Positions 41,488-60,645 of a stretch of 64,000 nt of DNA are shown piece by piece (the stretch's first letter is position 1; the number at the start of each line of letters is the position of its first letter). Below the pieces are notes generated by a model. The model was not told where the DNA came from. It searched no databases and worked only from the letters and a program-made list of their open reading frames with translations. The stretch comes from an uncultured Planctomycetota bacterium. Its GTDB lineage: Bacteria > Planctomycetota > Planctomycetia > Isosphaerales > Isosphaeraceae. Made by a program: the position numbers and the translations under genes. The stretch is from NCBI GenBank assembly GCA_963823665.1, contig CAWGMQ010000010.1:1280001-1344000 (forward strand), given 5' to 3'.

Positions 41488-41548
41488 GCCAGTAGTAAGC
41501 CCACGCCTGCCCCAGAGGGGCGGGCCCGCGTTTAACCCCCCGAACCAA

Positions 41549-41883
41549 CCCTCTCCCCCCCGGGGAGAGCGTGGCCGAAGGCCGGGTGACGGGGCGCGCT
41601 CGCGGACGACCCCCCGAACCCCGCTCCTGCGACACCCCGTTGGGCGCGGGTCTCCGGGCACCCGAAGCGTCGCCGCTCTCCCCGCGACCGAGGTCTCCGT
41701 TGGGCGCGGGTCTCCCGACCCCGCCCCTCCCCGCGACCGAAGGTCTCCAAGTCGGGCGCGGGTTCGCCGATCGTTCAGTGTAGCAGGCACACTCCGTGTG
41801 CCGTCCGCCATATTCGCGGCTCATGCGCCACCAGCGCCGCAACGGTCTTGCTGTAGCAGGCACACGCCGTGTGCCGTCCGCCA
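41549..41883. repeat. Cluster of intergenic REP-like repeats
   Basis: Three gggcgcgggt(ctcc) units with ccccgcgaccga(a)ggtctcc; two 32-bp GTAG-type palindromes tgtagcaggcacac(t/g)ccgtgtgccgtccgcca at 41779-41810 and 41852-41883. Confidence 0.75.
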
Positions 41884-41940
41884 ATTTAACGGCAACGCGA
41901 ACACTATCCCACGCCCGTCGCCTCCTTCCGCGAACGCCCC

Positions 41941-43647: not shown

Positions 43648-44196
43648 TCAGTCGCGCGTGAGCGTGACCGTATACGCCAACACGGTCAATTGCCCTGTGG
43701 AAATGCTGACCGTTCCATAAGCCTGCAAGCTCCCCGATGCCTTCGCGAAACGGCCGGAGCCGCCTGCGACGGTTCCGCTCCAGGAGAACGCGTAGCCCGG
43801 CCCGCTCTCGTAAATCGCCCCGGTGAATTGAATATCGAGCTTGGCGCCGCTCGAGTCGACAAGAGTCCCGGTTCCGTTCACCAGGTCGTATCCGACGATC
43901 GCCCCATTCTCGAGCGCAGCCCTGTATCGGGACTTGCCGTTGAAAGTGCCCGTTCCGAGAGGTGCCTCCGGACCCGCCGCCAAGAACTTGTCTGTTCCCT
44001 GGCCAGGTTTCCCCGCCTGGACCATTTGACCTTCGAGCGATCCGTAGACCTGATGGATCCCGGTCGCTTTTGCGACCCGCTTGAGCTCCGCCGCCGGCCG
44101 ATCGGCAACTGCAATGGCGCTCATCAGGTCGCGTGATTCAAGGGTCTCGACCCGCAAAGCTTGATGGCGACACGGCTTCCGCTTGTGGAGCGACAT
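43648..44196 (-). CDS. Small planctomycete extracellular beta-rich protein
   Basis: Leader LRVETLESRDLMS; GGSGRFAKASG motif; GGAGG RBS. Confidence 0.7.
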   Translation of the reverse strand: MSLHKRKPCRHQALRVETLESRDLMSAIAVADRPAAELKRVAKATGIHQVYGSLEGQMVQAGKPGQGTDKFLAAGPEAPLGTGTFNGKSRYRAALENGAIVGYDLVNGTGTLVDSSGAKLDIQFTGAIYESGPGYAFSWSGTVAGGSGRFAKASGSLQAYGTVSISTGQLTVLAYTVTLTRD

Positions 44197-45514
44197 CGAT
44201 CGACCCTCCAGATTGGTCGTTCCGCGGTCGGGGCAACGGGACCGCCGCAAAAGATACGCACTCTTGTGCCGATGCTACCTCGTCTTGCGACGATACCATT
44301 TGCAGCACTTGAACTTGCGTCGAATCGTCCGCTCCGTTTTCCCGGGTTAAGGGAGCAATTCGGGTAGCACCCTCGGTTCCGGTCGCCGCTAGGGCTTCTG
44401 CTTCCGGCCGCGGCTTGGGAGCCAGGTCCGGAAGTGCCTGCACAGCACCGTCGATATCGAACCTGGACGCTTTGGCGTAGATACCGATGGTCAGCTTCGG
44501 GTCAGAGTGCCGGGCAAGCACCTGGCAAGTCTTTACCGACGCTCCGGACGCGACGATATACGAGATGTAGCAACCCCGCAAGCTGTGAAAATCAACCACC
44601 CCGGAATCGGTCTCGTAGGGAATGCTGGCAGCTTCCAGGTCGATCCGCAGCATTTCGGCCGTCCGATTCGTCAACGTCCCGAAGATCGCCTCTCCTGGTG
44701 CCTTCTGGGCCAGCCACGGGCGAACTTGATCGGCCAGAGCTTGCGCCAACGGCTGCACAGCTTCCTGTCCGTTCTTCGTGTAAGCAGCCCGGCAGCGAAC
44801 GGTAGGAGGCGACGCGACAAGTTTGAAGTCCTCGGGTGTCAGGGATCGCAGTTCATCGGCTCTGAACCCGGTTCCGAGTGCCAAGCTGTACAGCACGGCG
44901 CGCTCAGGGCCTTCGATACCTCGGAAGATTGGCCCGCGCTCCGCTGCCCGCACCACCCGTGCGGCTTCCTCTGGAGTCATAGCCCGGCGAACCCGCCGCC
45001 GGTCGCCCTCCGAACTCGTGGTGGCGAGGTGTGCAAGGTGGTGATCTCGAGCCCGTCCATCCTTCCAGAGCCATCGGCTGAACGCCTTGACCGAGCGGAT
45101 GTAGTGATTGATGGTTTCGGTACTTAGCCCTTCACTACGAAGTACCACGGTCGCGTCAAGGGCCTTCGAGAGCGACAAGTCAGATATCCGCCGGCTCTTG
45201 GTCAGCTCGAGCATCCGGCTGACTTGCGTCGTCGTCGTGAGCGCGTGTCCGCTGTTGCTGCCTTTGGCTGCCAGGTATCGCCCATAATCCGCGGCGTGCT
45301 CCGCCAGGGGCTTGGCCTCGTGCTTCTGGTAGGCAAGATCCCGCGGGTCGATCTGTCCGTTCTTGATCTTGCGGGCTTCCGTCTCGAGCTTGACCGCCAG
45401 CTCTTGTGACGCTCGCTTGTCGGTGTAGCCCTTTTTCTTCCGCCGGTCGCCGTTGGCGTCGAAGTAAAGAATCGTGTAGCAGTCTGCGCCCTTGGCCTTG
45501 AAAACCGATGCCAT
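44138..45514 (-). CDS. int: Tyrosine integrase; the ORF reads through the left att site
   Basis: Catalytic set GFRADE, TKNG, FHSLR, ARHS, IGIY; LAATGTEG tail. Confidence 0.95.
   Translation of the reverse strand: MASVFKAKGADCYTILYFDANGDRRKKKGYTDKRASQELAVKLETEARKIKNGQIDPRDLAYQKHEAKPLAEHAADYGRYLAAKGSNSGHALTTTTQVSRMLELTKSRRISDLSLSKALDATVVLRSEGLSTETINHYIRSVKAFSRWLWKDGRARDHHLAHLATTSSEGDRRRVRRAMTPEEAARVVRAAERGPIFRGIEGPERAVLYSLALGTGFRADELRSLTPEDFKLVASPPTVRCRAAYTKNGQEAVQPLAQALADQVRPWLAQKAPGEAIFGTLTNRTAEMLRIDLEAASIPYETDSGVVDFHSLRGCYISYIVASGASVKTCQVLARHSDPKLTIGIYAKASRFDIDGAVQALPDLAPKPRPEAEALAATGTEGATRIAPLTRENGADDSTQVQVLQMVSSQDEVASAQECVSFAAVPLPRPRNDQSGGSIDVAPQAEAVSPSSFAGRDP
44253..44270. repeat. Left att core
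   Basis: gatacgcactcttgtgcc versus gatacgcattccagtgcc at 60139-60156. Confidence 0.65.
44350..44370. promoter_or_regulatory. Candidate integrase arm-type sites (left)
   Basis: agggagcaattcgggtagcac; a matching tandem motif occurs at 59970-59989. Confidence 0.55.
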
Positions 45515-45515
45515 G

Positions 45516-45719
45516 TCACTTCGCCTTTCTCGTGGTTGTGATCCGCAGGCCCAGTAATTCGGCCAGCTTGTCAAGATTCGCCAGCGATAGCCCAGCTTGC
45601 CCGTTGACGAATCGAGACATCGACGCCCCGTCAATGCGCGTCCGCCGGCAGATTTCGTAGTGCGTCAAACCTGATTGCTTGACCGCTTCCCGGATTTGGT
45701 CAGTCAACGTATCGCTCAT
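45516..45719 (-). CDS. XRE-family HTH regulator
   Basis: SGLTHYEICRRTRIDGASMSRFVNG..LSLANLDKLAELLGL; ends 1 nt before the int start. Confidence 0.85.
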   Translation of the reverse strand: MSDTLTDQIREAVKQSGLTHYEICRRTRIDGASMSRFVNGQAGLSLANLDKLAELLGLRITTTRKAK

Positions 45720-46298: not shown

Positions 46299-46790
46299 TC
46301 AATCGGCCGATGGATCGAACATCGATGCCGGCTTGCCCAGAGCCTTAGCAATCTTGGAAATCGTAGCGTGCGATGGGCTGTGCTTTCCGGTTTCAAGTCG
46401 GCTGATGTGGCTTTGAAGCAACCCCGCCTTCTGTGCAAGCTGCGCCTGCGTTAGACCGGCGGCTTGACGCTCCTTGGCGATCCGCTTGCTGATGAATGAA
46501 ATCCACGCCAAGAGCCCCGACTTCGGCGAATTCGGCTCCGATGGGCAGTCCATCTTTCGCGAACCTGATGGCGCCTGTTCCAGGATTTCGCGCATCGTCA
46601 CGACGCAGCTTTCAAATTCCTCAGGATCTGCGGTCGGCAGTACCTTGACCAACTCGAAAAGATCGTCCCTGTCATTCTGGTTGAGACGCTGCACGCGATC
46701 CAACACGATCGCGACGGCCATCGTCAAAGCCTCATGGCTAAGATTGGACTGCGCAGAATCTAGTGGTCCGTGAAGCTCCTTGGTAGGCAT
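46299..46790 (-). CDS. XRE-HTH antitoxin (HigA-like)
   Basis: RQAAGLTQAQLAQKAGLLQSHISRLETGKHSP; lies downstream of the toxin. Confidence 0.8.
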   Translation of the reverse strand: MPTKELHGPLDSAQSNLSHEALTMAVAIVLDRVQRLNQNDRDDLFELVKVLPTADPEEFESCVVTMREILEQAPSGSRKMDCPSEPNSPKSGLLAWISFISKRIAKERQAAGLTQAQLAQKAGLLQSHISRLETGKHSPSHATISKIAKALGKPASMFDPSAD

Positions 46791-46845
46791 GCTATCCCTT
46801 CCGAATTCAATATAATCGAATAATCTTGCGTGGGGCTCGCGCGGG

Positions 46846-47259
46846 TCACGCCGCCGAATAGCCGCCATTTCGATAGTTTCTGGCCCTCCTTCGCATCCGA
46901 ATCTTCGCACCGTTCGGAGTCGGTCCGTCATTCTGTTTCTTGATCCCGCCCAACACGACGATGATGGTTCTGTGCTTGTCGAGCAGAAAGAATATGCGGA
47001 CGTTCATCCCTCCCAAGATACCGCCCTTGTCACGTAGCTCGAAGTAGTCTTCGATTGCACGGATGTCGGCGGTAACGCTATGTGAAGGATCATTTTCCGT
47101 AGCCAACTCCTTGAATTGGAGTGCCAAGTGGTGATATTGGGCTCGGTTCACGAATCCCATTACTTCGTGGTACCCCTCGTTGAGAATCCGGACGCTCCAC
47201 CGATAGCCAGGCGGCGGTCCGCCCCCCTGCGTCACGCCAACCTTGACCTCTTTCGCCAT
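46846..47259 (-). CDS. RelE/HigB-like (Gp49-type) toxin
   Basis: YFELRDKGG..NVRIFF..IIVVLGGIKKQ pattern; toxin-first gene order. Confidence 0.75.
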   Translation of the reverse strand: MAKEVKVGVTQGGGPPPGYRWSVRILNEGYHEVMGFVNRAQYHHLALQFKELATENDPSHSVTADIRAIEDYFELRDKGGILGGMNVRIFFLLDKHRTIIVVLGGIKKQNDGPTPNGAKIRMRRRARNYRNGGYSAA

Positions 47260-48064: not shown

Positions 48065-48364
48065 TCAGTCTGGAATCATCCCAGGATATGGCGGGCATGC
48101 CACCGGCTCCGTGGGGGCATCGCACTCCCCGCCCCCGCACCGTTGGCATTTCTTCACCACCGGCGTAGGCAGTCCGAGCGCCGCGGCCGCTTCCTGCACC
48201 TCGGCATCCGTGGTCGTGATTTCGCCCTTCGCTCCGTGCCACTGCTTGACGAACAATGCCGCGTAAGCAGCCTGGCTCCAATGGTCGCCCAGCTCGTGGA
48301 CGAGTCGCTGAAAGTGCGGCTGATGCGCGACTGCCTTTTCGATTTCAGGTAGCGTGATCGTCAT
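48065..48364 (-). CDS. Hypothetical protein with C-terminal Cys cluster
   Basis: CQRCGGGEC; ATGA overlap with the upstream gene. Confidence 0.6.
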   Translation of the reverse strand: MTITLPEIEKAVAHQPHFQRLVHELGDHWSQAAYAALFVKQWHGAKGEITTTDAEVQEAAAALGLPTPVVKKCQRCGGGECDAPTEPVACPPYPGMIPD

Positions 48365-48762
48365 GATTCAACCCTCTCAAACCTGCCGATTGGGCAACGC
48401 TCGGTTGAGGCCCATAACTTCAGAGACCCGCAGCCACAAATTCGACATCGTTGCGAATCGGCGTTGTAATGCTCGCATGCCTGGCATAACGCTAAACGTT
48501 GCTCATGGATTTCTGGCGAGACTTTGACTGCATGGCCAGTCAGAACAGCACCCGCCACTCGAGCGGCTGCGCCCAGAGCGTTTACGGCCATCTGCGCCAT
48601 GGTCGGAAACTCCTGCGGTGCACCCGTGGCGATCTCGAGAACGATTTCCCGATAGCGACCGCGCTGCCATTCGTCCGGATTCTCATCCGAGCAAAGCCAG
48701 CGATAACGCTCGTGTTTTGTTTTTCCGACCACGATGTCTAGGGCTTCGGGTAGTGTCATCAT
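48361..48762 (-). CDS. DUF6171-like Cys-rich protein
   Basis: RLALCQACEHY..RCRICGC..LKLW...CPIGRF; ATGA-coupled start. Confidence 0.65.
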   Translation of the reverse strand: MMTLPEALDIVVGKTKHERYRWLCSDENPDEWQRGRYREIVLEIATGAPQEFPTMAQMAVNALGAAARVAGAVLTGHAVKVSPEIHEQRLALCQACEHYNADSQRCRICGCGSLKLWASTERCPIGRFERVES

Positions 48763-49583
48763 TGGGTCACCGTGACGCCAATAGTCGGTCCCGTGCAATT
48801 CCCATACACCGTGCAGAAACCACCGTCTCCAGCACCATTGGCGCAGCCGCTGCCAATCAAAAAACTTCCGGTTTCGTTTACTGGGTAGCAGGAGCTTTGT
48901 TCCGGCCCCACCCCGGTCATATTGGTGGATATCTCGCTGCTGAAACTCGAGCCGCTCGTATCGGGGCACCCGTTCGAATCGGTTGGGTAATTGTGCGGAC
49001 AATACACGGACGCTCTATCAATGCTGGCGCTTATGCAGGGATTGTAGCTGTACTGTAATTCCACCGTTCCGCCCACGCATCCGCATGCCGCGCCATAGGT
49101 GTAATTGATGCTGCCGATGTAATTCAACGAGCTTCCCGTACCAACGATACTTAATGTTCCGTAGGGGTAAAGTGTGACTGCTCCGACAACGGCGTCGGTA
49201 AGTGTGAGTTGATCGGGGTACATTAACAGAAGGGCTTTGTTTGGTGACGCTGTGCTCCCTGTTACGGTAATGTGCTGTGTCGTCGGAGTCGTGAGATAGC
49301 CAGACGGCGCCGACATCGAAAAGTAATATGTGCCCGTGCTTGACACTTCCCAAACAAACTGGCCGCTCGAGTTAGTCGTCCCTGACGCAACGACGGTACC
49401 GCCTGAATTGTTTTGCTGGACAGTTATCGTGATCCCTGAGAATCCGCATATCTTTGTGCTGTCACACCACCATACCTGAACGGTGTGATTCGCACCGCAC
49501 CCACAACACGTCCCAATCGACCAGGCGCCGTAGGCGGCATAGAGTAGGCAGACGAGACCAATGATCAACAGGTAGACCATCAT
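48759..49583 (-). CDS. Cys/Gly/Ser/Thr-rich membrane-anchored or secreted protein
   Basis: N-terminal TM, TCCGCG, prealbumin-like GTTNSSGQF..GTYYFSMSAPSGY, many Cys; visibly lower GC. Confidence 0.7.
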   Translation of the reverse strand: MMVYLLIIGLVCLLYAAYGAWSIGTCCGCGANHTVQVWWCDSTKICGFSGITITVQQNNSGGTVVASGTTNSSGQFVWEVSSTGTYYFSMSAPSGYLTTPTTQHITVTGSTASPNKALLLMYPDQLTLTDAVVGAVTLYPYGTLSIVGTGSSLNYIGSINYTYGAACGCVGGTVELQYSYNPCISASIDRASVYCPHNYPTDSNGCPDTSGSSFSSEISTNMTGVGPEQSSCYPVNETGSFLIGSGCANGAGDGGFCTVYGNCTGPTIGVTVTQ

Positions 49584-50752: not shown

Positions 50753-51976
50753 TCAACGCTGGGCAATCGTGACTGCCCACCCGACTGTTGAACCATCCGT
50801 CGTGGTAAGCGTGCTTGGCCAGATGCTGCGCCCATCCCCTCTAAGCTTGAGCCGCACCGCGACCTCGTCAGATAGGAAAAAGACGTCCTCCGAGTAGGAT
50901 CGCTCCATCACACCCTCGGGTAGCGCGATGATTCCAGTGTGCCCCTCATCGCGCGGCAGACTGATGTCGAACGACAGAGTGCTAAGATCGTTCTTCGTCA
51001 CCCTGCGAACACATAAGTGATATTGTGACCAGTCCGCCAAGACGAGATCCGCCGGAGTCCCAATGGCGGAGCAATTTTCGTTCACAATGCATGGCCTTCC
51101 CTTGATCAAAGGAAATTCATTCCCCGCCACCCCCTGCGGAAGGTAGATCGCTGATGGCCAATTCGCTGCCGACGCTACTTCATCGATGCTGCCCAGAGTC
51201 GCGTCCGTGCAAGACCAGATCGCGTTCCGCTTGCACGGCCCGTACAAACTTTTCCACATATTTGTGATATTGGTTTCGCTTATGGTGCCGCTGCTTTGCC
51301 CGCTGTCCTTTGCGATCTGCACAACCCCGGCCGCGGGCAGTCCGCTGCCTGGCACCACCACGCCGGAAGGCCCCGCGATAATCCCTTGGATCATGGCTTG
51401 CTCAAGCTGGAAACGGATTTCCGACTCGGCCGAATAATCCAAGAGAGGCATAATCAAATCCGTGTCCGCGAACAGGTCGCGAGACATGGGCGGAAATTGC
51501 ACGATCAATCGCGAGCAGGAAAAATTCACCCGCGCTGCCGATGGTTGCGATTGGAACTTCGATTGCGAAAGATCGGCCGTTTCTGACGTCGCCCAAACCC
51601 CCAGCACACCACCCCACCGGCTCCCGGCCGCTCTCGAAGATTCCCCGTAGACTGGCAACACAAAATCGCGCTGATTCACGGTGATGATTCGACAGCGCGC
51701 GAGCGGACCGTCAACCGTCCGGGCTTTGTCCCAAACTGCCGTTGCCCACTCGGGCTTGAGCGTGAAACCGTAGTCCTGTCCCTGATACCCGACACCGGTT
51801 CTGATTTGCAGGTCCTCAAGGTTCATCAAGCGTTCGGTCGAATCGAACGTCAGCAATGAACGCGCGGCCGTCGCTGCGAAAAAGCCGAATGGCGTAACGT
51901 CGTCCGCTGCGATCGGACGCAACATGGCTCGCGACTTGCGCGGTTTCGGCATTTCGATCGTAGTGCCGTGCAACAT
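50753..51976 (-). CDS. HK97-fold major capsid protein
   Basis: GFTLKPEW, ESSRAAGSRWGGV, LIKGRPCI..E.CSAIGTPADLVLADWSQY, SEDVFFLSDEVAVRLKLRGDG. Confidence 0.88.
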   Translation of the reverse strand: MLHGTTIEMPKPRKSRAMLRPIAADDVTPFGFFAATAARSLLTFDSTERLMNLEDLQIRTGVGYQGQDYGFTLKPEWATAVWDKARTVDGPLARCRIITVNQRDFVLPVYGESSRAAGSRWGGVLGVWATSETADLSQSKFQSQPSAARVNFSCSRLIVQFPPMSRDLFADTDLIMPLLDYSAESEIRFQLEQAMIQGIIAGPSGVVVPGSGLPAAGVVQIAKDSGQSSGTISETNITNMWKSLYGPCKRNAIWSCTDATLGSIDEVASAANWPSAIYLPQGVAGNEFPLIKGRPCIVNENCSAIGTPADLVLADWSQYHLCVRRVTKNDLSTLSFDISLPRDEGHTGIIALPEGVMERSYSEDVFFLSDEVAVRLKLRGDGRSIWPSTLTTTDGSTVGWAVTIAQR

Positions 51977-52578: not shown

Positions 52579-52827
52579 CTAAACTGGCGGATTATTGGAC
52601 GTTCCATCTCGTTCAGCGAGCAATTCGGCGAGCCGCCGGAAACGTTCGTCGGTCTTGAACGTCCCCGCGTTCAGCCAGTTATAGAGCGTCGATCGGCTGA
52701 TTCCCGCAGTGTCGGCAGCTTCGTTGATGCTCAAGCCGCGGCCGAATGCGAAACCGAGAAGCAACATCGTCTCGCCGTCGCAAGCCGATGGTCTGCCGCG
52801 TCTGTTTTTCGTTTTCGCTTGTGGCAT
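52579..52827 (-). CDS. Small HTH protein (terminase small-subunit-like N-terminus)
   Basis: RGRPS...GLSINEAADTAGISRSTLYNWL. Confidence 0.65.
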   Translation of the reverse strand: MPQAKTKNRRGRPSACDGETMLLLGFAFGRGLSINEAADTAGISRSTLYNWLNAGTFKTDERFRRLAELLAERDGTSNNPPV

Positions 52828-53184: not shown

Positions 53185-54027
53185 TCAATCCTCATCCCAG
53201 AGTGAAGGGTCACGAAGGTTGCCCACCGCGGCGGGGTTGTGCCGGACGGCATAAGGGGGAATGAAACGCGGGTCTAGTTCGTCGTCGTCGTCGTTTTCTT
53301 GCTCGAGCTCGCGCTTACGCTCCGCCACCTTCTCGACCTCGAGCGCTCTGGCTTCCCAGGGTTGCAGATTCGTTGTGTCGGCCGTGATTGTCATGGCCAT
53401 CCATCGTTGACGTCCAAGCCAGAGCGCGAGGCTCACACTCATAACGCAGTCGTCATGATCCGAATTGAACGCTTCGGCAGAAGTGTTGCCGGTTTTGGCG
53501 CTCACCCGGATTTTAAAATCCCTCAATTCTTTTTTGAGCAATCTAGCGTGCTCCTGATGCTTTCCGTTCCGCATCGGGCATATCTTTACCCGACGATTGC
53601 CGAGTGCTTCGGCCAATGCGCTCACGAGCTCAACCTTGGCGACGTTCCACATGCGCCGGCCGCGTGGCGCCGATGTTGCGCCCCCGGTTATGTTGATCCC
53701 GTAGACTCGGATGTGCTCGTATGGCGCGAATGCGGTAACGCACTGCTCAAACACCGCCGTTCCACAGCCGGACATATCGATCACCACAATGGGAGCCGGT
53801 CGAATGTCGCTTCTGGTTGCGATGCGTACCAGGTCTTTTACCACGGCGCCGTACTCTGTTTTTAACGGCCAGCGACGTAGGCCCACGATCTGAAACGAAT
53901 AGATGGAATTCCCCCGGCTATCGCGTTCGGGAAGGCCCTGCGCGTCCACGGCCAGGCTGCGAGCCATTACAGACAACGCGGAAAAGTCCCGGAACTGGCC
54001 TAAGTCCAGCGTGACAAAGTTGTCCAC
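53185..54027 (-). CDS. Terminase large subunit, stand-alone RNase H-like nuclease domain
   Basis: TLDLGQFRDFSA, VIDMSGCG, DHDDCVMSVSLA; own RBS (GAGGGG) and GTG start. Confidence 0.8.
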   Translation of the reverse strand: MDNFVTLDLGQFRDFSALSVMARSLAVDAQGLPERDSRGNSIYSFQIVGLRRWPLKTEYGAVVKDLVRIATRSDIRPAPIVVIDMSGCGTAVFEQCVTAFAPYEHIRVYGINITGGATSAPRGRRMWNVAKVELVSALAEALGNRRVKICPMRNGKHQEHARLLKKELRDFKIRVSAKTGNTSAEAFNSDHDDCVMSVSLALWLGRQRWMAMTITADTTNLQPWEARALEVEKVAERKRELEQENDDDDELDPRFIPPYAVRHNPAAVGNLRDPSLWDED

Positions 54028-54029
54028 GA

Positions 54030-54797
54030 TTAGAGCCCCTCGAGTGCTGTGAGTAATGGCATGCCAGGCGGATACTCGGTTAAAGCCTCAATCGCATCAT
54101 CACCTATTAATTGGTCGCCGTCCTCTATAAAAGCGTTTTCATGTTCCTGTCTGTACAGTGCAGGCCCCAGGATCTTGAGCTCATCGTCCAGGAATCCCGG
54201 CTTTACACGATGCGGATAGTCGACGCGTCGGGCGGAGATGCGTTCCCAGGTCTGCTCCTGATCTTCCCAGCATGCGTAGAAGAACCCCCGCCGGCCCGCG
54301 GGTGTGGAGAGCAGGATTAGGTCGCCGTCTGTCTCCGCCAGCATCGGACGCACCGCAGCCAGCATGCCCTCATCTATACGTGATGCTTCGTCTAATATAA
54401 CCAAGTGTGGAGTGTACCCGCGTGCAGTAGCCGGATCGCCTGGCAAGGCAACCAGCTTGCTACCGTTGGCGAAGTGCAGTTCAGTTCTGAGTTGCTTGAC
54501 CAGCTCAACGGGCTTGGTGCGCTCGTAATACTGAACAGTGCGGTCAAACAGCAACAGCGATTGCCTTTCCCCGATGCTAGTCAGGAGACATTCCGAGCCC
54601 GCGGTGAAGCAAACACGGTGCAAGGCTTTCACCGCAGATACGCTGGTTTTCCCAAGTTGCCGGCCGCAAAGCATAAGCAATCGTTTGCTTGTCGACTGCA
54701 AAGCTTGGCGCTGCCATAAATCTGGTTCAAGCCCCGTCGCCGCGCGAAACAAGTATGTCGGGTCCAGTGCCGCCTTCAACAATGCTTTCCTGTCCAT
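54030..54797 (-). CDS. Terminase large subunit, stand-alone ATPase domain
   Basis: PDLWQ, Walker A CGRQLGKT, ARG, Walker B VILDE, coupling motif LSTP, YRQE. Confidence 0.88.
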   Translation of the reverse strand: MDRKALLKAALDPTYLFRAATGLEPDLWQRQALQSTSKRLLMLCGRQLGKTSVSAVKALHRVCFTAGSECLLTSIGERQSLLLFDRTVQYYERTKPVELVKQLRTELHFANGSKLVALPGDPATARGYTPHLVILDEASRIDEGMLAAVRPMLAETDGDLILLSTPAGRRGFFYACWEDQEQTWERISARRVDYPHRVKPGFLDDELKILGPALYRQEHENAFIEDGDQLIGDDAIEALTEYPPGMPLLTALEGL

Positions 54798-55389
54798 CGG
54801 TGCTACCCTCCGAGTGCTCGAGTTGCTCCATCTGGTCGATAACCGCGGCGAGGCGATAACGGTCTTCTGGTGTCTTCACAGCGTCAAGGAGGGCCGCGCC
54901 TTGCAACCCGAACATCGCGACGCTGATGTTCTGGGTAGACCCGCCGATCTTGTTGATGGTCTTGTGCTCTCGCAGTTTGCCCCAGTAGCGATCCATCAAC
55001 AGTTGGATGGCCTTCAGCCGGTCGCCGTGCGTCTCGCCCTCGAGAGCGATATGGGCGAGCTCTTTGACCGCGTCGGCGAGCAGGGTTGGGTGCTCGTCAT
55101 CGATCAGTTGCTTGAACCGGCGTTTGATCCTGACACCTGCTGCGATCCGCGCCGGATCGGGGGTCGCGCAGCTATTGCCCACAGCGAACATGCCGTTCTC
55201 ACCCCGGCCTTCACCCGTGCCGGCCCAGCTCGAGGCGTCCAGAGCGGTCTGCGGGTCCTGCTGTTCGGAGAACACCCGCGGCGCAGGGCGGGCGGGCTTG
55301 GCTGGCTTGGCGCCCTTGACCTTGCGCGGGCCCCGGTACCCTCGAGCGGTACCATGCCAGCGAGGCAACGGCGAGGTGTCAGTGCTCAT
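54727..55389 (-). CDS. Putative terminase small subunit
   Basis: RGENGMFAVGN and LKAIQLLMDRYWGK motifs; directly upstream of the terminase ATPase. Confidence 0.6.
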   Translation of the reverse strand: MSTDTSPLPRWHGTARGYRGPRKVKGAKPAKPARPAPRVFSEQQDPQTALDASSWAGTGEGRGENGMFAVGNSCATPDPARIAAGVRIKRRFKQLIDDEHPTLLADAVKELAHIALEGETHGDRLKAIQLLMDRYWGKLREHKTINKIGGSTQNISVAMFGLQGAALLDAVKTPEDRYRLAAVIDQMEQLEHSEGSTDGQESIVEGGTGPDILVSRGDGA

Positions 55390-56201: not shown

Positions 56202-56639
56202 GCGTTAAACTCCTTGCATGCATGACGGTATGGGCCGACGATGGTGAGCCCGGCTGAACGGCCAGAGACTGGCCTTCCACGCTGATCTGCTCAAAAGCCT
56301 GCTGCTCATGGTCAGGCCACGGGATACCATCTGCCTCGAGGCGATTGGCGAGTTCACCCCATCGTTGCCGGCGCTCAATCGGCCATCCAGCGAGATCAGA
56401 AGGTCTCGACCACTTCAAGCCTACAAAACCTACGGAACCGGTTTTGTCTGGTTTCGTAGGTAGCGGGGGGTATCTATCTATAAGAATTTCACTGGCGCAG
56501 AAATACACTCACTCACACCATCATTGATGTACTCTTTAGGGTCTGAATTTTCTGTGTACCTATGGGGTGGATTGCCTACGAAACCTACAAAAGCATCCAC
56601 TGGCTTGATCTGCTGCTTGAATGCATTCAAGTATTTCAT
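56182..56639 (-). CDS. Hypothetical protein(s) downstream of the replication gene, probably one frameshifted gene
   Basis: ATGA-coupled start MKYLNAF; FVGFVG/TKPDK repeats; C-terminal WGELANRLEADG in the second frame. Confidence 0.45.
56420..56592. repeat. Iteron-like 9-mer array (candidate replication origin)
   Basis: cctac(a/g)aaa-type pairs at 56420-56439 and 56575-56592, an inverted pair at 56440-56460, and AT-rich sequence between. Confidence 0.55.
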
Positions 56640-58588
56640 GCTTGCGACCACACTTCCTTGGATGGCAGAACCGGATTGATCCACACTTTCTTGGATGGTC
56701 TGCCACCGAACGCGCTCTCTGACGGAACCTCGACCACCTTCACCCATCCGCGGTCTTCAAGGATGCCGATGGCGGTTTCGACGTCATCGACCATCCGCAG
56801 GCCTGACCATCCCTTCTGCGCGACCTCCCGCGGAGTGAACGGATTTGGAAGCGATCCCTTGATCCGCTCGGATAGCGCGACCGCGATCGAGATGTCGCCG
56901 TCCGCGCAGGCCATGTACACCCGCCTGGCGTGCGCCTCGAGCAGGTCACACCATGCCGCGGCCGCTTGAGCTGCCTCGAGGGACACCGGTCCTATCTCCC
57001 ATGCCCTGCATGTCTCGACCAAATGGAAGATCAGTGCCAGCGAGGCCATGAGCGAGCCATATTTCGATAGGTGGTTCTTCATCAGGTCTGAGAGAGCACC
57101 ACCCCGGAGTCGCTGTTGCAGTTCTGTATACCACTGGTTGAAGAACGCTTGAGCGTCATCGGCGAAATTGACGTAGGCCAAGCCGCTATCCTGATCGACC
57201 TTGCATCCCTTATCCGCTGCGTTCATCTGGTCGATCGCCTTGAAGACGTCATAGGCTTCATTCTTCGCCGCGGTATCTGGCCACTGGTCGACATGCACGT
57301 AATCGTCCGGCGGATCCGGATACACCATCACCTGGAAGCGGGGAACGAAACCGTCCGCTTCCTCTCCACTGACGGTGCGTTTCATGTACTGCGCGAGCGG
57401 TCCGGGCTGGATGGTTCCGAGCACCGCCAGACACGCCGCTTCAATGTGCGTCGTGCCGCGCTGGATTCGATCGAATGTGAAAGAGCCGTTTCCATTCCAG
57501 CACTCAAGCAGGAAACCCCGGTCCGATTGGTGACCTTCCCGCTCGAGGCTCTTGAGCAGTCCAAGCAGTTCGTCCCGAAAGACCGTCAACCCGTTCGGAT
57601 TCTCCGCCATGAGCTCGCCAAGCTTCTCGACCGTGAAATCGTTCACGAGATACCGCCGGCACTTCGGCTGATCTTCCTGACTGGTGGCCATCGCATCGAC
57701 CGCGAGCCGCTTTAGTTCGTCCTCCGTCGTCCCCTCCACCTTCGCCGCTTTCTTCAGCGTGCTCTTGGCTGCGTCCTTGCGTGCCGCGGCAACAAGCTGG
57801 CGAGCGGTGTAATCGTTCATCTGTTGGGCGAAGGCGTCCATCGCATCGGCCACGAGTCGCTTGAGCGGACGCATGACGGCCTCGACTGCCGGGGTCTTCA
57901 AGAATCCGGGTGGCCCGACGATGATTCCCCAGAGATTCACCACCACCACCCAGTCATCGTAGCGCTTCGGTCTTATCGCCACCTTCCGGCCGATCACCCC
58001 GCTGAGAGCGACAATCAGCGTCGCCGCAACGTACTCAAACGGAAAACAGCCACGCGTTGCGATATCGCGCAGCCACCCGCGGAAAACCTCTGGCACCATC
58101 TCCGGCACGATGGCAGGGACCGGCTCGAGGTTTGCCGTTATCGGGCGGGGTGGCAGAAGGAAGATAGGGCTTCGAGCCGAAACCTCTTTATCCCTCCATT
58201 TGGTCCGCTTGGCCGCTTCATTCACGAAGTCGTCGCCGTCCACATACTCGCCATCGGCGACCTTCTCGTTAAACCACGCTTTGAGTTGATCGCCGTTGCC
58301 AGCGATTCCGAACGCTTCGCGCAGGTTCAAAGTCCCCACCTGGCTGGCGAAGTAATGGTTGCCGTTCCCTTCGCACCACACCGCCGCCGCGGTCGCCGAT
58401 TCTGGTTCGCTATAGGCAAAGATGATCCGCCGCCGGTCCGCGAACTTCGCAAGCTGGCCCTTCGCCGTGAAGACCTCGATCGCCGGAATGCCGAGCTCCC
58501 GCACCGCGGCTGCAACCCGCAGTTCAATGCACCCGAAAACAATGTCGCCGGGCTTGCCATTCGGGACATGGCCGTTTGATTCGCTCAT
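56636..58588 (-). CDS. DUF3987/YfjI-family replication protein (helicase-like)
   Basis: NLWGIIVGPPGFLKTP, NDFTVEKL, FRDEL, DRIQRG, GTIQPG, DGFVPRF. Confidence 0.88.
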   Translation of the reverse strand: MSESNGHVPNGKPGDIVFGCIELRVAAAVRELGIPAIEVFTAKGQLAKFADRRRIIFAYSEPESATAAAVWCEGNGNHYFASQVGTLNLREAFGIAGNGDQLKAWFNEKVADGEYVDGDDFVNEAAKRTKWRDKEVSARSPIFLLPPRPITANLEPVPAIVPEMVPEVFRGWLRDIATRGCFPFEYVAATLIVALSGVIGRKVAIRPKRYDDWVVVVNLWGIIVGPPGFLKTPAVEAVMRPLKRLVADAMDAFAQQMNDYTARQLVAAARKDAAKSTLKKAAKVEGTTEDELKRLAVDAMATSQEDQPKCRRYLVNDFTVEKLGELMAENPNGLTVFRDELLGLLKSLEREGHQSDRGFLLECWNGNGSFTFDRIQRGTTHIEAACLAVLGTIQPGPLAQYMKRTVSGEEADGFVPRFQVMVYPDPPDDYVHVDQWPDTAAKNEAYDVFKAIDQMNAADKGCKVDQDSGLAYVNFADDAQAFFNQWYTELQQRLRGGALSDLMKNHLSKYGSLMASLALIFHLVETCRAWEIGPVSLEAAQAAAAWCDLLEAHARRVYMACADGDISIAVALSERIKGSLPNPFTPREVAQKGWSGLRMVDDVETAIGILEDRGWVKVVEVPSESAFGGRPSKKVWINPVLPSKEVWSQA

Positions 58589-59989: not shown

Positions 59990-60138
59990 TTGAGCCACGC
60001 TCCGACGCGTTTCCATGCGTGTCTGTGCGTGATAATACCGCACTGCCAGGCTCGGAAACAACGGAGAATGAAGGCTTCCCGCGTGTCCCCGCGTTTCCGT
60101 GCGCGTCAGTGCGTTCTGACGTGAAAACGTCAAGATCT

Positions 60139-60156
60139 GATACGCATTCCAGTGCC
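60139..60156. repeat. Right att core
   Basis: gatacgcattccagtgcc. Confidence 0.65.
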
Positions 60157-60159
60157 AGT

Positions 60160-60645
60160 CAGCAAGCCAGGTTGGCCGTGCACCAGTTCCGTGCATCGGT
60201 GTGGCTCGCAGATTGGCCAGCTTGGGGTCGTCCTTGAGCGCCCGAGTTTCGCGCACGACCTCGCCGTACCGCCCCACCGCGTCAATTGCCAATTGCTCGC
60301 GAATCTGGGCTCGCTGCTGCACTGCCTTCGCCGAGATCTCTGCTTTGGTCGCGCGGGCCTTTTCAGTCTGTACGACCCCGACGGCGGCCCCGCTTCGACG
60401 GCGTCGCCGGCAAGATGGCGCTCGATGTCCCTGGCTAGCGCGGTCGCTGTTTCGTAACGCAGTGCCCGGTCCTTCTCGAGGGCCTTGCACGTCTCGATCA
60501 TCGCCCTGGCCTTGAGCAACTGCTCGAGCTTCTGGCGCAGATCGATATCACCGCCGCACTGACGATCCAGGAAAGCGGCGCAGTCTTCCGGCGAAGTGAG
60601 CTCGAGGGCATCCCAGAAAATGCGGTCGACGCTCTTCGGTTCCAT
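60160..60645 (-). pseudogene. Ser/Thr kinase remnant with the whole catalytic domain deleted
   Basis: N-terminal AAFLDRQCGGDIDLRQKLEQLL joined directly to post-kinase KALEKDRALRYETATALARDIERHL..PPSGSYRL. Confidence 0.8.

Follow-up and report, generated by a model that had tools for sequence, protein, structure and literature searches.

The large terminase subunit (TerL) encoded in the window, the whole 64,000-nucleotide stretch of planctomycetotal DNA analyzed here, is divided between two consecutive genes, one for the ATPase and one for the nuclease (Table 1), and this split is real and natural. As a gene arrangement, a two-gene TerL is well supported by our sequence comparisons, since the split is conserved, both active sites are intact, each gene has its own start, other genes intervene between the two in some relatives, and in the full head modules of some relatives the pair is placed upstream of portal genes. 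Judged from the homologous loci that we compiled, the layout recurs across a large family that comprises phages as well as small mobile elements.

Table 1. Features of the split terminase and of the island that carries it, with positions in the window.
Feature	Position	Strand	Basis
Tyrosine integrase; 3' end reads across the left att site	44138..45634	-	PF00589, phrog_1
Left att-like repeat	44253..44270	+	15/18 nt identical to the right copy, 8-nt exact core; empty site in G401
Gp49/RelE-like gene and HTH gene, likely toxin-antitoxin cargo	46299..47259	-	PF05973 3.2e-4, HTH_3 2.4e-14
HK97-type major capsid protein homologue (407 aa)	50753..51976	-	PF05065 6.8e-11; Atlas 0.97, 10/10 best matches from the same family
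82-aa HTH protein, TerS-like N-terminus	52579..52827	-	phrog_4102 terminase small subunit 6.1e-10
TerL nuclease gene (280 aa): RNase H/RuvC-like core 1-206 and ~70-aa helical tail	53185..54027	-	phrog_27743, Foldseek
RBS GAGGGG of the nuclease gene, 8 nt before GTG	54036..54041	-	sequence; inside the last Glu-Gly codons of the ATPase
TerL ATPase gene (255 aa): ATPase, lid and ~29-aa retained linker (227-255)	54030..54797	-	Pfam Terminase_6N, phrog_7579, AF2 model
220-aa ORF in TerS position, candidate small terminase	54727..55389	-	position; Atlas matches to viral hypothetical and DUF5681 clusters, 0.93-0.94
DUF3987 helicase-type replication protein	56636..58588	-	PF13148 1.8e-89; phrog_2373
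Right att-like repeat	60139..60156	+	empty site; flanking host genes adjacent in 5/5 relatives searched

The ATPase and nuclease genes

The ATPase reading frame ends in TAA, and the GTG start codon of the nuclease gene (54025-54027) follows 2 nt further on. An earlier note on this DNA had read Walker A, Walker B and STP motifs ahead of the TAA, a GTG with its own ribosome-binding site (RBS), and a nuclease that keeps its acidic motifs; all of these readings are borne out. Purine-rich tracts are present at the equivalent place in the junctions of the relatives G482 and G401. With its TAA, its separate GTG and RBS, and a split that is found throughout the family, the window pair does not encode the one polypeptide that TerL normally is, a premise of the earlier note that holds in general.

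Walker A (GRQLGKT, residues 45-51), Walker B (LVILDE, 132-137), the arginine-finger position (R126) and motif III (STP, 164-166) are all present in the ATPase, which matches Pfam Terminase_6N (7.8e-7) and the whole of phrog_7579 (2e-46). Residues 10-226 of its AF2 model (pLDDT 94) superimpose on residues 3-255 of the P74-26 ATPase (VIA Z 25.0, rmsd 2.1, 212 aligned), and the protein hence combines the ASCE ATPase domain of a TerL, including Walker A/B, arginine finger and motif III, with a lid. Across the family, Walker A is found in 99/99 ATPases, Walker B in 97/99, motif III in 98/99 and the arginine-finger pattern in 86/99. The one-chain TerL proteins (Pfam Terminase_6N, phrog_2 type) of the Thermus phages P74-26/G20c and of T4 (gp17), our comparison class, have the same ATPase and lid fold (Z 25), the same nuclease fold and the same acidic residues.

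Since the match to the P74-26 ATPase ends at model residue 226, residues 227-255 are, according to the model, the inter-domain linker left on the ATPase; they are modeled as two short helices with falling confidence. At their C-terminal end, the split ATPases share a conserved F-x-x-x-x-I-x-x-A...P-L segment similar to the linker in fused relatives. The P74-26 ATPase is reported to span residues 1-256, with D294, D300, D347, D428 and D429 as the metal ligands (PMC5389665), which places ~38 residues between residue 256 and D294. In the window, 29 residues stay on the ATPase and 7 precede the first Asp of the nuclease, and the cut hence falls at the far end of the linker. The earlier claim that the split lies exactly at the domain boundary is therefore right in placing it between the domains, but the cut is not at the boundary of the ATPase. 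The retained stretch of ~29 residues is likely a docking arm for the nuclease.

The nuclease matches phrog_27743 (2.1e-28), a family without a name in PHROGs, and the best Foldseek matches of its model (pLDDT 71) are the G20c TerL nuclease (3.8e-6), T4 gp17 and the RB49 nuclease. It thus shows the RNase H/RuvC-like fold with conserved acidic residues that is expected of a TerL nuclease: D8, D14, D84, D192 and D193 match the five P74-26 ligands in order, spacing and conservation. Among complete family nucleases, D8 and D14 are each kept in 87/89, D84 in 89/89, and D192 and D193 in 86/89. Hence, both halves look catalytically intact at the level of their motifs. The acidic tail noticed earlier exists, but it is part of a ~70-aa extension common to close homologues, with a predicted long helix (223-250) and an RDP..W-like motif at its end. 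Elsewhere in the family, nuclease genes at four loci (L116, L079, L147, L159) encode lengthy additional C-terminal regions, in ORFs of 380-680 aa, and at five others (L044, L046, L126, L064, L036) a family ATPase was found with no nuclease detected within 2.8-9.7 kb downstream, where the partner may have been lost or may be located at a greater distance.

Prevalence of the split and nature of the gene junction

We classified the loci of the best 80 of 501 viral matches and of the best 79 of 566 metagenome matches. Fifty-four of the 80 viral loci were split, 21 were fused, 3 had an ATPase without a detected nuclease and 2 were uninformative; the corresponding metagenome numbers were 69 split, 0 fused, 1 ATPase alone and 9 uninformative among 79. 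Combined, 123/159 loci were split and 21/159 fused (102 split against 22 fused groups once near-copies had been merged), a ratio that is inflated because the homologue sets were drawn with a profile built on stand-alone ATPases. Despite this inflation, the abundance of the split form among the sequences is not in doubt. When proteins of 140-447 aa were admitted to an ATPase search, 118 of the best 120 of 333 matches were shorter than 300 aa. The nuclease profile matched 4374 clusters at 50% identity; the best 150 of them contained one clear full fusion, P0147 (514 aa), and a few more proteins of 330-400 aa. Closer to the window, a single-protein search of 400 genomes of the phylum at E 1e-15 gave no match; the family profile had matches, mostly weak and to fused TerLs, in 23/60 relatives, and the nuclease profile in 4/120 genomes of the family. 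No loci were returned when viral contigs were pattern-scanned, either with the single ATPase or with the alignment of nucleases.

The check proposed earlier, whether homologues are split as well, thus has a positive answer, and the close homologues stop at the same place. Nine close ATPase homologues (62-100% identity) end in ..LEGL/W or ..LEAL directly before the stop codon; one of them, assembled separately in Logan, is 100% identical, and the other eight are 62-82% identical. Judging from the sequence of the junction, the conserved ..LEG(L/W) end of the window's subclade may partly reflect the overlapping RBS.

It is highly improbable that the two genes yield a single polypeptide by way of an assembly indel, a programmed -1 frameshift, readthrough or bypassing. 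Such an account could draw on the nuclease frame being open for 55 nt upstream, in the -1 frame, on the same frame relation in 66/99 pairs, on the bypassing proposed for other terminases (PMC10732093), and on the fact that contigs from 5/5 read runs (with 5-10% of words) all miss the junction. However, a slippery heptamer was looked for at the window junction and none was found, and among the eligible overlaps of the family one is present in 1/58. In 99 distinct pairs the nuclease is found in all three frames relative to the ATPase (66/17/16), and all three stop codons occur. Intergenic gaps range from overlaps to 2.6 kb and exceed 250 nt in 9/99 pairs; error, frameshifting and readthrough consequently fail to explain the family. 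In 93/100 pairs the nuclease has its own start before its first motif, 61 of these 93 with an SD-like tract, and the start lies no more than 11 nt from the ATPase stop in 66/93. These features point to a junction of ordinary translational coupling. In the contig of one relative, 11 of the 15 differences listed fall on third codon positions, a weak observation at a depth of 3.

Split and fused forms have, as their trees suggest, interconverted repeatedly. On the ATPase tree (154 rows) the two states need 9 changes, at least 5 of them forced by well-supported branches. A single origin of the split ATPases as one clade was rejected in an AU test (p 1.1e-4), carried out on a quick tree of 36 split and 14 fused rows hand-picked from the 154. 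The nuclease tree groups 90/90 split nucleases with three fused ones (Riverbug, MMP17 and P0147; SH-aLRT 91, unstarred, with long branches), and the nucleases of the other 22 fused proteins lie apart from this group; this topology appears compatible with one origin followed by re-fusions, which it does not exclude. An old split with later re-fusions and nuclease swaps would fit best.

The nearest cultured phages are Thermus phage Riverbug and the Meiothermus phages MMP7/MMP17, with ATPase identities of 40-42% to Riverbug and MMP17. These are full head-tail phages whose TerL is one chain of 415-417 aa, whereas the window has two genes in an island without a detected portal. As the nucleases of Riverbug and MMP17 are nested among split nucleases, their TerL proteins may be re-fusions. 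The nuclease nearest to that of the window belongs to the fused P0147 (37% identical), and a related island in G481 has a fused-type linker as in P0147, though it is full of frameshifts; one slot can therefore be taken by either the split or the fused form. A mixed alignment around P0147 was discarded, with a mean column identity of 12%.

A natural split is already in print for Arthrobacter cluster AY phages, in which ATPase and nuclease are reported to be encoded by two consecutive genes (PMC11920828), e.g., gp2/gp3 of BillyTP according to its annotation. This layout is like that of the window, but the cluster AY TerL is of a different family (phrog_19179/phrog_21277, phrog_9 type): it shows no BLASTP similarity to the window ATPase (best E 0.93) and no match to the family's ATPase or nuclease profile, and these phages are full cos phages with portal and tail, unlike the window island. 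On these comparisons, theirs is an independent split. In the literature covered, which took in few subscription journals, cluster AY and the Streptomyces bypass cases were the only natural splits found, and there was no paper on the window's family.

The island and its relatives

The ends of the island were set by an empty site in G401, with an 18-nt imperfect repeat and 15.9 kb between its copies; general repeat searches missed this att pair, and no tRNA gene was found in the window. Integrase, regulators and a replication module lie between the repeats, as in phage-inducible chromosomal islands (PICI); HTH proteins are among the regulators. A helicase domain was found in the island, and a primase domain was not clearly detected in it. 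None of the 27 ORFs in or at the edge of the island gave a portal, protease, connector, tail or lysis match, tblastn with 10 portal and 3 protease queries gave no match in the island, and no unassigned ORF in it is longer than 274 aa. The 220-aa ORF has no significant match (E 0.2) to the TerS-position family of other loci. Two further cargo genes on the minus strand (48361-49583) recur in a G401 island; the product of one is a Cys-rich beta-sandwich protein whose N-terminus is signal-like, and that of the other is DUF6171-like with a Cys motif. Just outside the right att site, ORF 60130-60645 (minus strand) has no family match; it resembles the remnant of an internally deleted Ser/Thr kinase, and at this place the gap in the G401 empty site is shorter. 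A signal motif in the gene that flanks the island suggests that the host is likely a planctomycete. Outside the island, at 41500-41900, there are several imperfect GC-rich repeats with a spacing of 50-75 nt.

With PICI, including SaPIbov5, the island shares an integrase, regulators, a replication gene, a capsid-like gene, a size of ~16 kb and att repeats, and no tail or lysis genes were found in it, as in PICI; for the small terminase of PICI it has two candidates, the 220-aa ORF and the 82-aa HTH protein. The capsid gene has its likeness in Ccm, the capsid homologue described for SaPIbov5. The PICI core is described as being without TerL (PMC10085698), whereas the island has a complete two-gene TerL. 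Like cf-PICI, it has TerL and capsid genes, candidates for TerS and no tails; cf-PICI, however, are described as also encoding portal, protease and head-tail adaptor/connector proteins (PMC10085698), none of which was found in the island. By its gene content, the island fits neither class fully.

Four related islands are spread across G401, G481 and G482. They have the same gene order, with integrase, primase, ATPase, nuclease and capsid and/or prohead protease genes, and no portal match. All four have frameshifts or stops in their terminase genes, which reflect either decay or long-read error. The window island lacks the prohead protease known from these relatives.

In the stretches read of G000, the genome of the window, no intact head-tail cluster of a helper prophage was found. 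A PF04860 search of G000 gave no portal, a weak negative since a search of this kind also overlooked the capsid gene of the window. G000 has two other one-chain TerL genes (470-472 aa), both in non-phage surroundings, on contig C4 at ~163,600-165,000 and on C2 at ~82,100-83,500, and one portal-like gene (phrog_145), on the same strand as the C2 copy and ~6 kb from it; these TerL genes are possibly domesticated phage genes or remnants. A second PICI-like island on C6 (~1,610,000-1,619,000) comprises an integrase, an HK97-type capsid gene and a primase-helicase that shares 65% identity with the DUF3987 protein of the window; it gave no terminase match. An isolated C-terminal fragment of the window's nuclease family is present on C8 (1,534,896-1,535,180).

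Packaging by two chains and the alternatives

The genomic context of the family was read from 44 distinct loci (43 split and one with the ATPase alone) that extend at least 5 kb downstream, in which ORFs of at least 270 aa were scanned. In 15/44, all from a virus-selected collection, a portal gene lies within 6.5 kb downstream of the pair, often followed by protease and capsid genes; by source, portal matches were obtained in 15/25 virus-collection loci, 0/14 metagenome loci and 0/5 genome loci. The portals are of the SPP1, Mu, P22, Phage_portal_3 and Head-tail_con types, the last of which we take to be the T7-type portal, and of two further PHROG types. Two of the remaining loci have head genes and an unassigned portal-sized ORF, 2 are unclear, and 25 have no portal or head genes nearby. 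The pair hence takes the place of TerL in full head modules but also occurs in small elements, where it typically sits beside a primase/helicase gene and a gene in TerS position. Because it lies upstream of several unrelated portal types, the pair likely works as a packaging motor.

The earlier suggestion of a genuine two-subunit motor stands as far as the gene arrangement is concerned; that the two chains bind each other and translocate DNA together is what we infer. We consider it moderately probable that the two-chain terminase loads island DNA into heads with the portal and tail of a helper, and that the capsid homologue takes part in head assembly. Translational coupling would give matched amounts of the two chains, and the ATPase linker (227-255) would dock on the nuclease as it does inside a one-chain TerL. 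The ATPase ring would then grip and pump the DNA, with the nuclease cutting at start and end and its variable C-terminal tail binding the portal, as TerL tails are thought to do; the capsid homologue would co-assemble with helper heads or resize them in the manner of Ccm. A split motor of this kind would need an ATPase-nuclease interface, since cutting T4 gp17 at the linker is reported to abolish translocation (PMC3012670) and the isolated P74-26 nuclease is reported neither to bind nor to cut DNA (PMC5389665).

The T4 result could also be taken to mean that the pair only initiates and terminates packaging, cutting island DNA at its own pac site and handing the end to the helper's motor without pumping, and the ATPase-dependent cutting described for P74-26 needs no procapsid (PMC5389665). 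We regard this as quite improbable, as no second TerL was seen in the portal-carrying relatives (flanks of up to 10 kb on each side) and the lid and arginine finger are conserved. The pair might instead mainly interfere, its free nuclease cutting helper concatemers or its ATPase poisoning the helper motor while the helper's terminase packages the island. The missing portal of the island, the 25/44 long loci without portal or head genes nearby, and published cases of satellites that manipulate helper packaging would agree with such a role. The same pair, however, occupies the TerL slot of phage head modules ahead of portals at 15/44 loci, the family conserves the arginine finger along with both active sites, and a related nuclease domain is inactive without its ATPase (PMC5389665); the free nuclease that sabotages a helper, an alternative raised in the earlier note, is thus less likely as the main role, and we judge interference unlikely overall. 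It is likewise rather unlikely that the family is functional but the window copy sits in an island or prophage remnant that is decaying and has lost its mobility. Related islands are broken in three genomes, the window island is without a protease gene, and a nuclease-only fragment exists elsewhere in G000, but the ORFs for ATPase, nuclease, capsid, helicase and integrase are all open, both att repeats survive, and the 100%-identical ATPase was assembled separately.

Building on the two-chain motor, we tentatively propose, as a possibility on which we would lean less heavily, that the family is a widespread, unpublished TerL lineage working as a non-covalent two-chain motor, with the linker as docking arm and the nuclease and its tail as a swappable portal adaptor. 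If true, this modularity would let the lineage serve at least six portal types and would let satellites of a new, portal-less class, be they integrated or plasmid-borne and whether or not they have capsid or tape-measure genes, bring their whole terminase to the helper's prohead. With a TerL and a capsid gene of its own but no detected portal, the island suggests yet another strategy by which phages are hijacked. There is disagreement among packaging-motor models as to whether the pumping of DNA is driven by the ATPase and nuclease domains moving against each other within one covalent chain. A two-chain TerL found in nature, with its fused sister proteins as controls, would offer a direct test of the need for a covalent domain link. 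For annotation, it follows that such ATPase/nuclease pairs should not be labeled pseudogenes.

The split pair is also present on complete plasmids of cultured Salinibacter ruber (pSR11, pSR14) and Streptomyces virginiae, whose scanned ORFs gave no portal or capsid match. Terminases on small Salinibacter plasmids are mentioned in the literature, with no remark on the split (PMC6060240). pSR11 and pSR14 have an extra tape-measure-like gene, and the Rhodococcus plasmid pDJL3 carries a fused version of the terminase. These three plasmids, of 11-16 kb, each combine a terminase with a tape-measure-like gene and gave no portal or capsid match among the ORFs scanned; from this gene content, they are candidate tail-modifying satellites.
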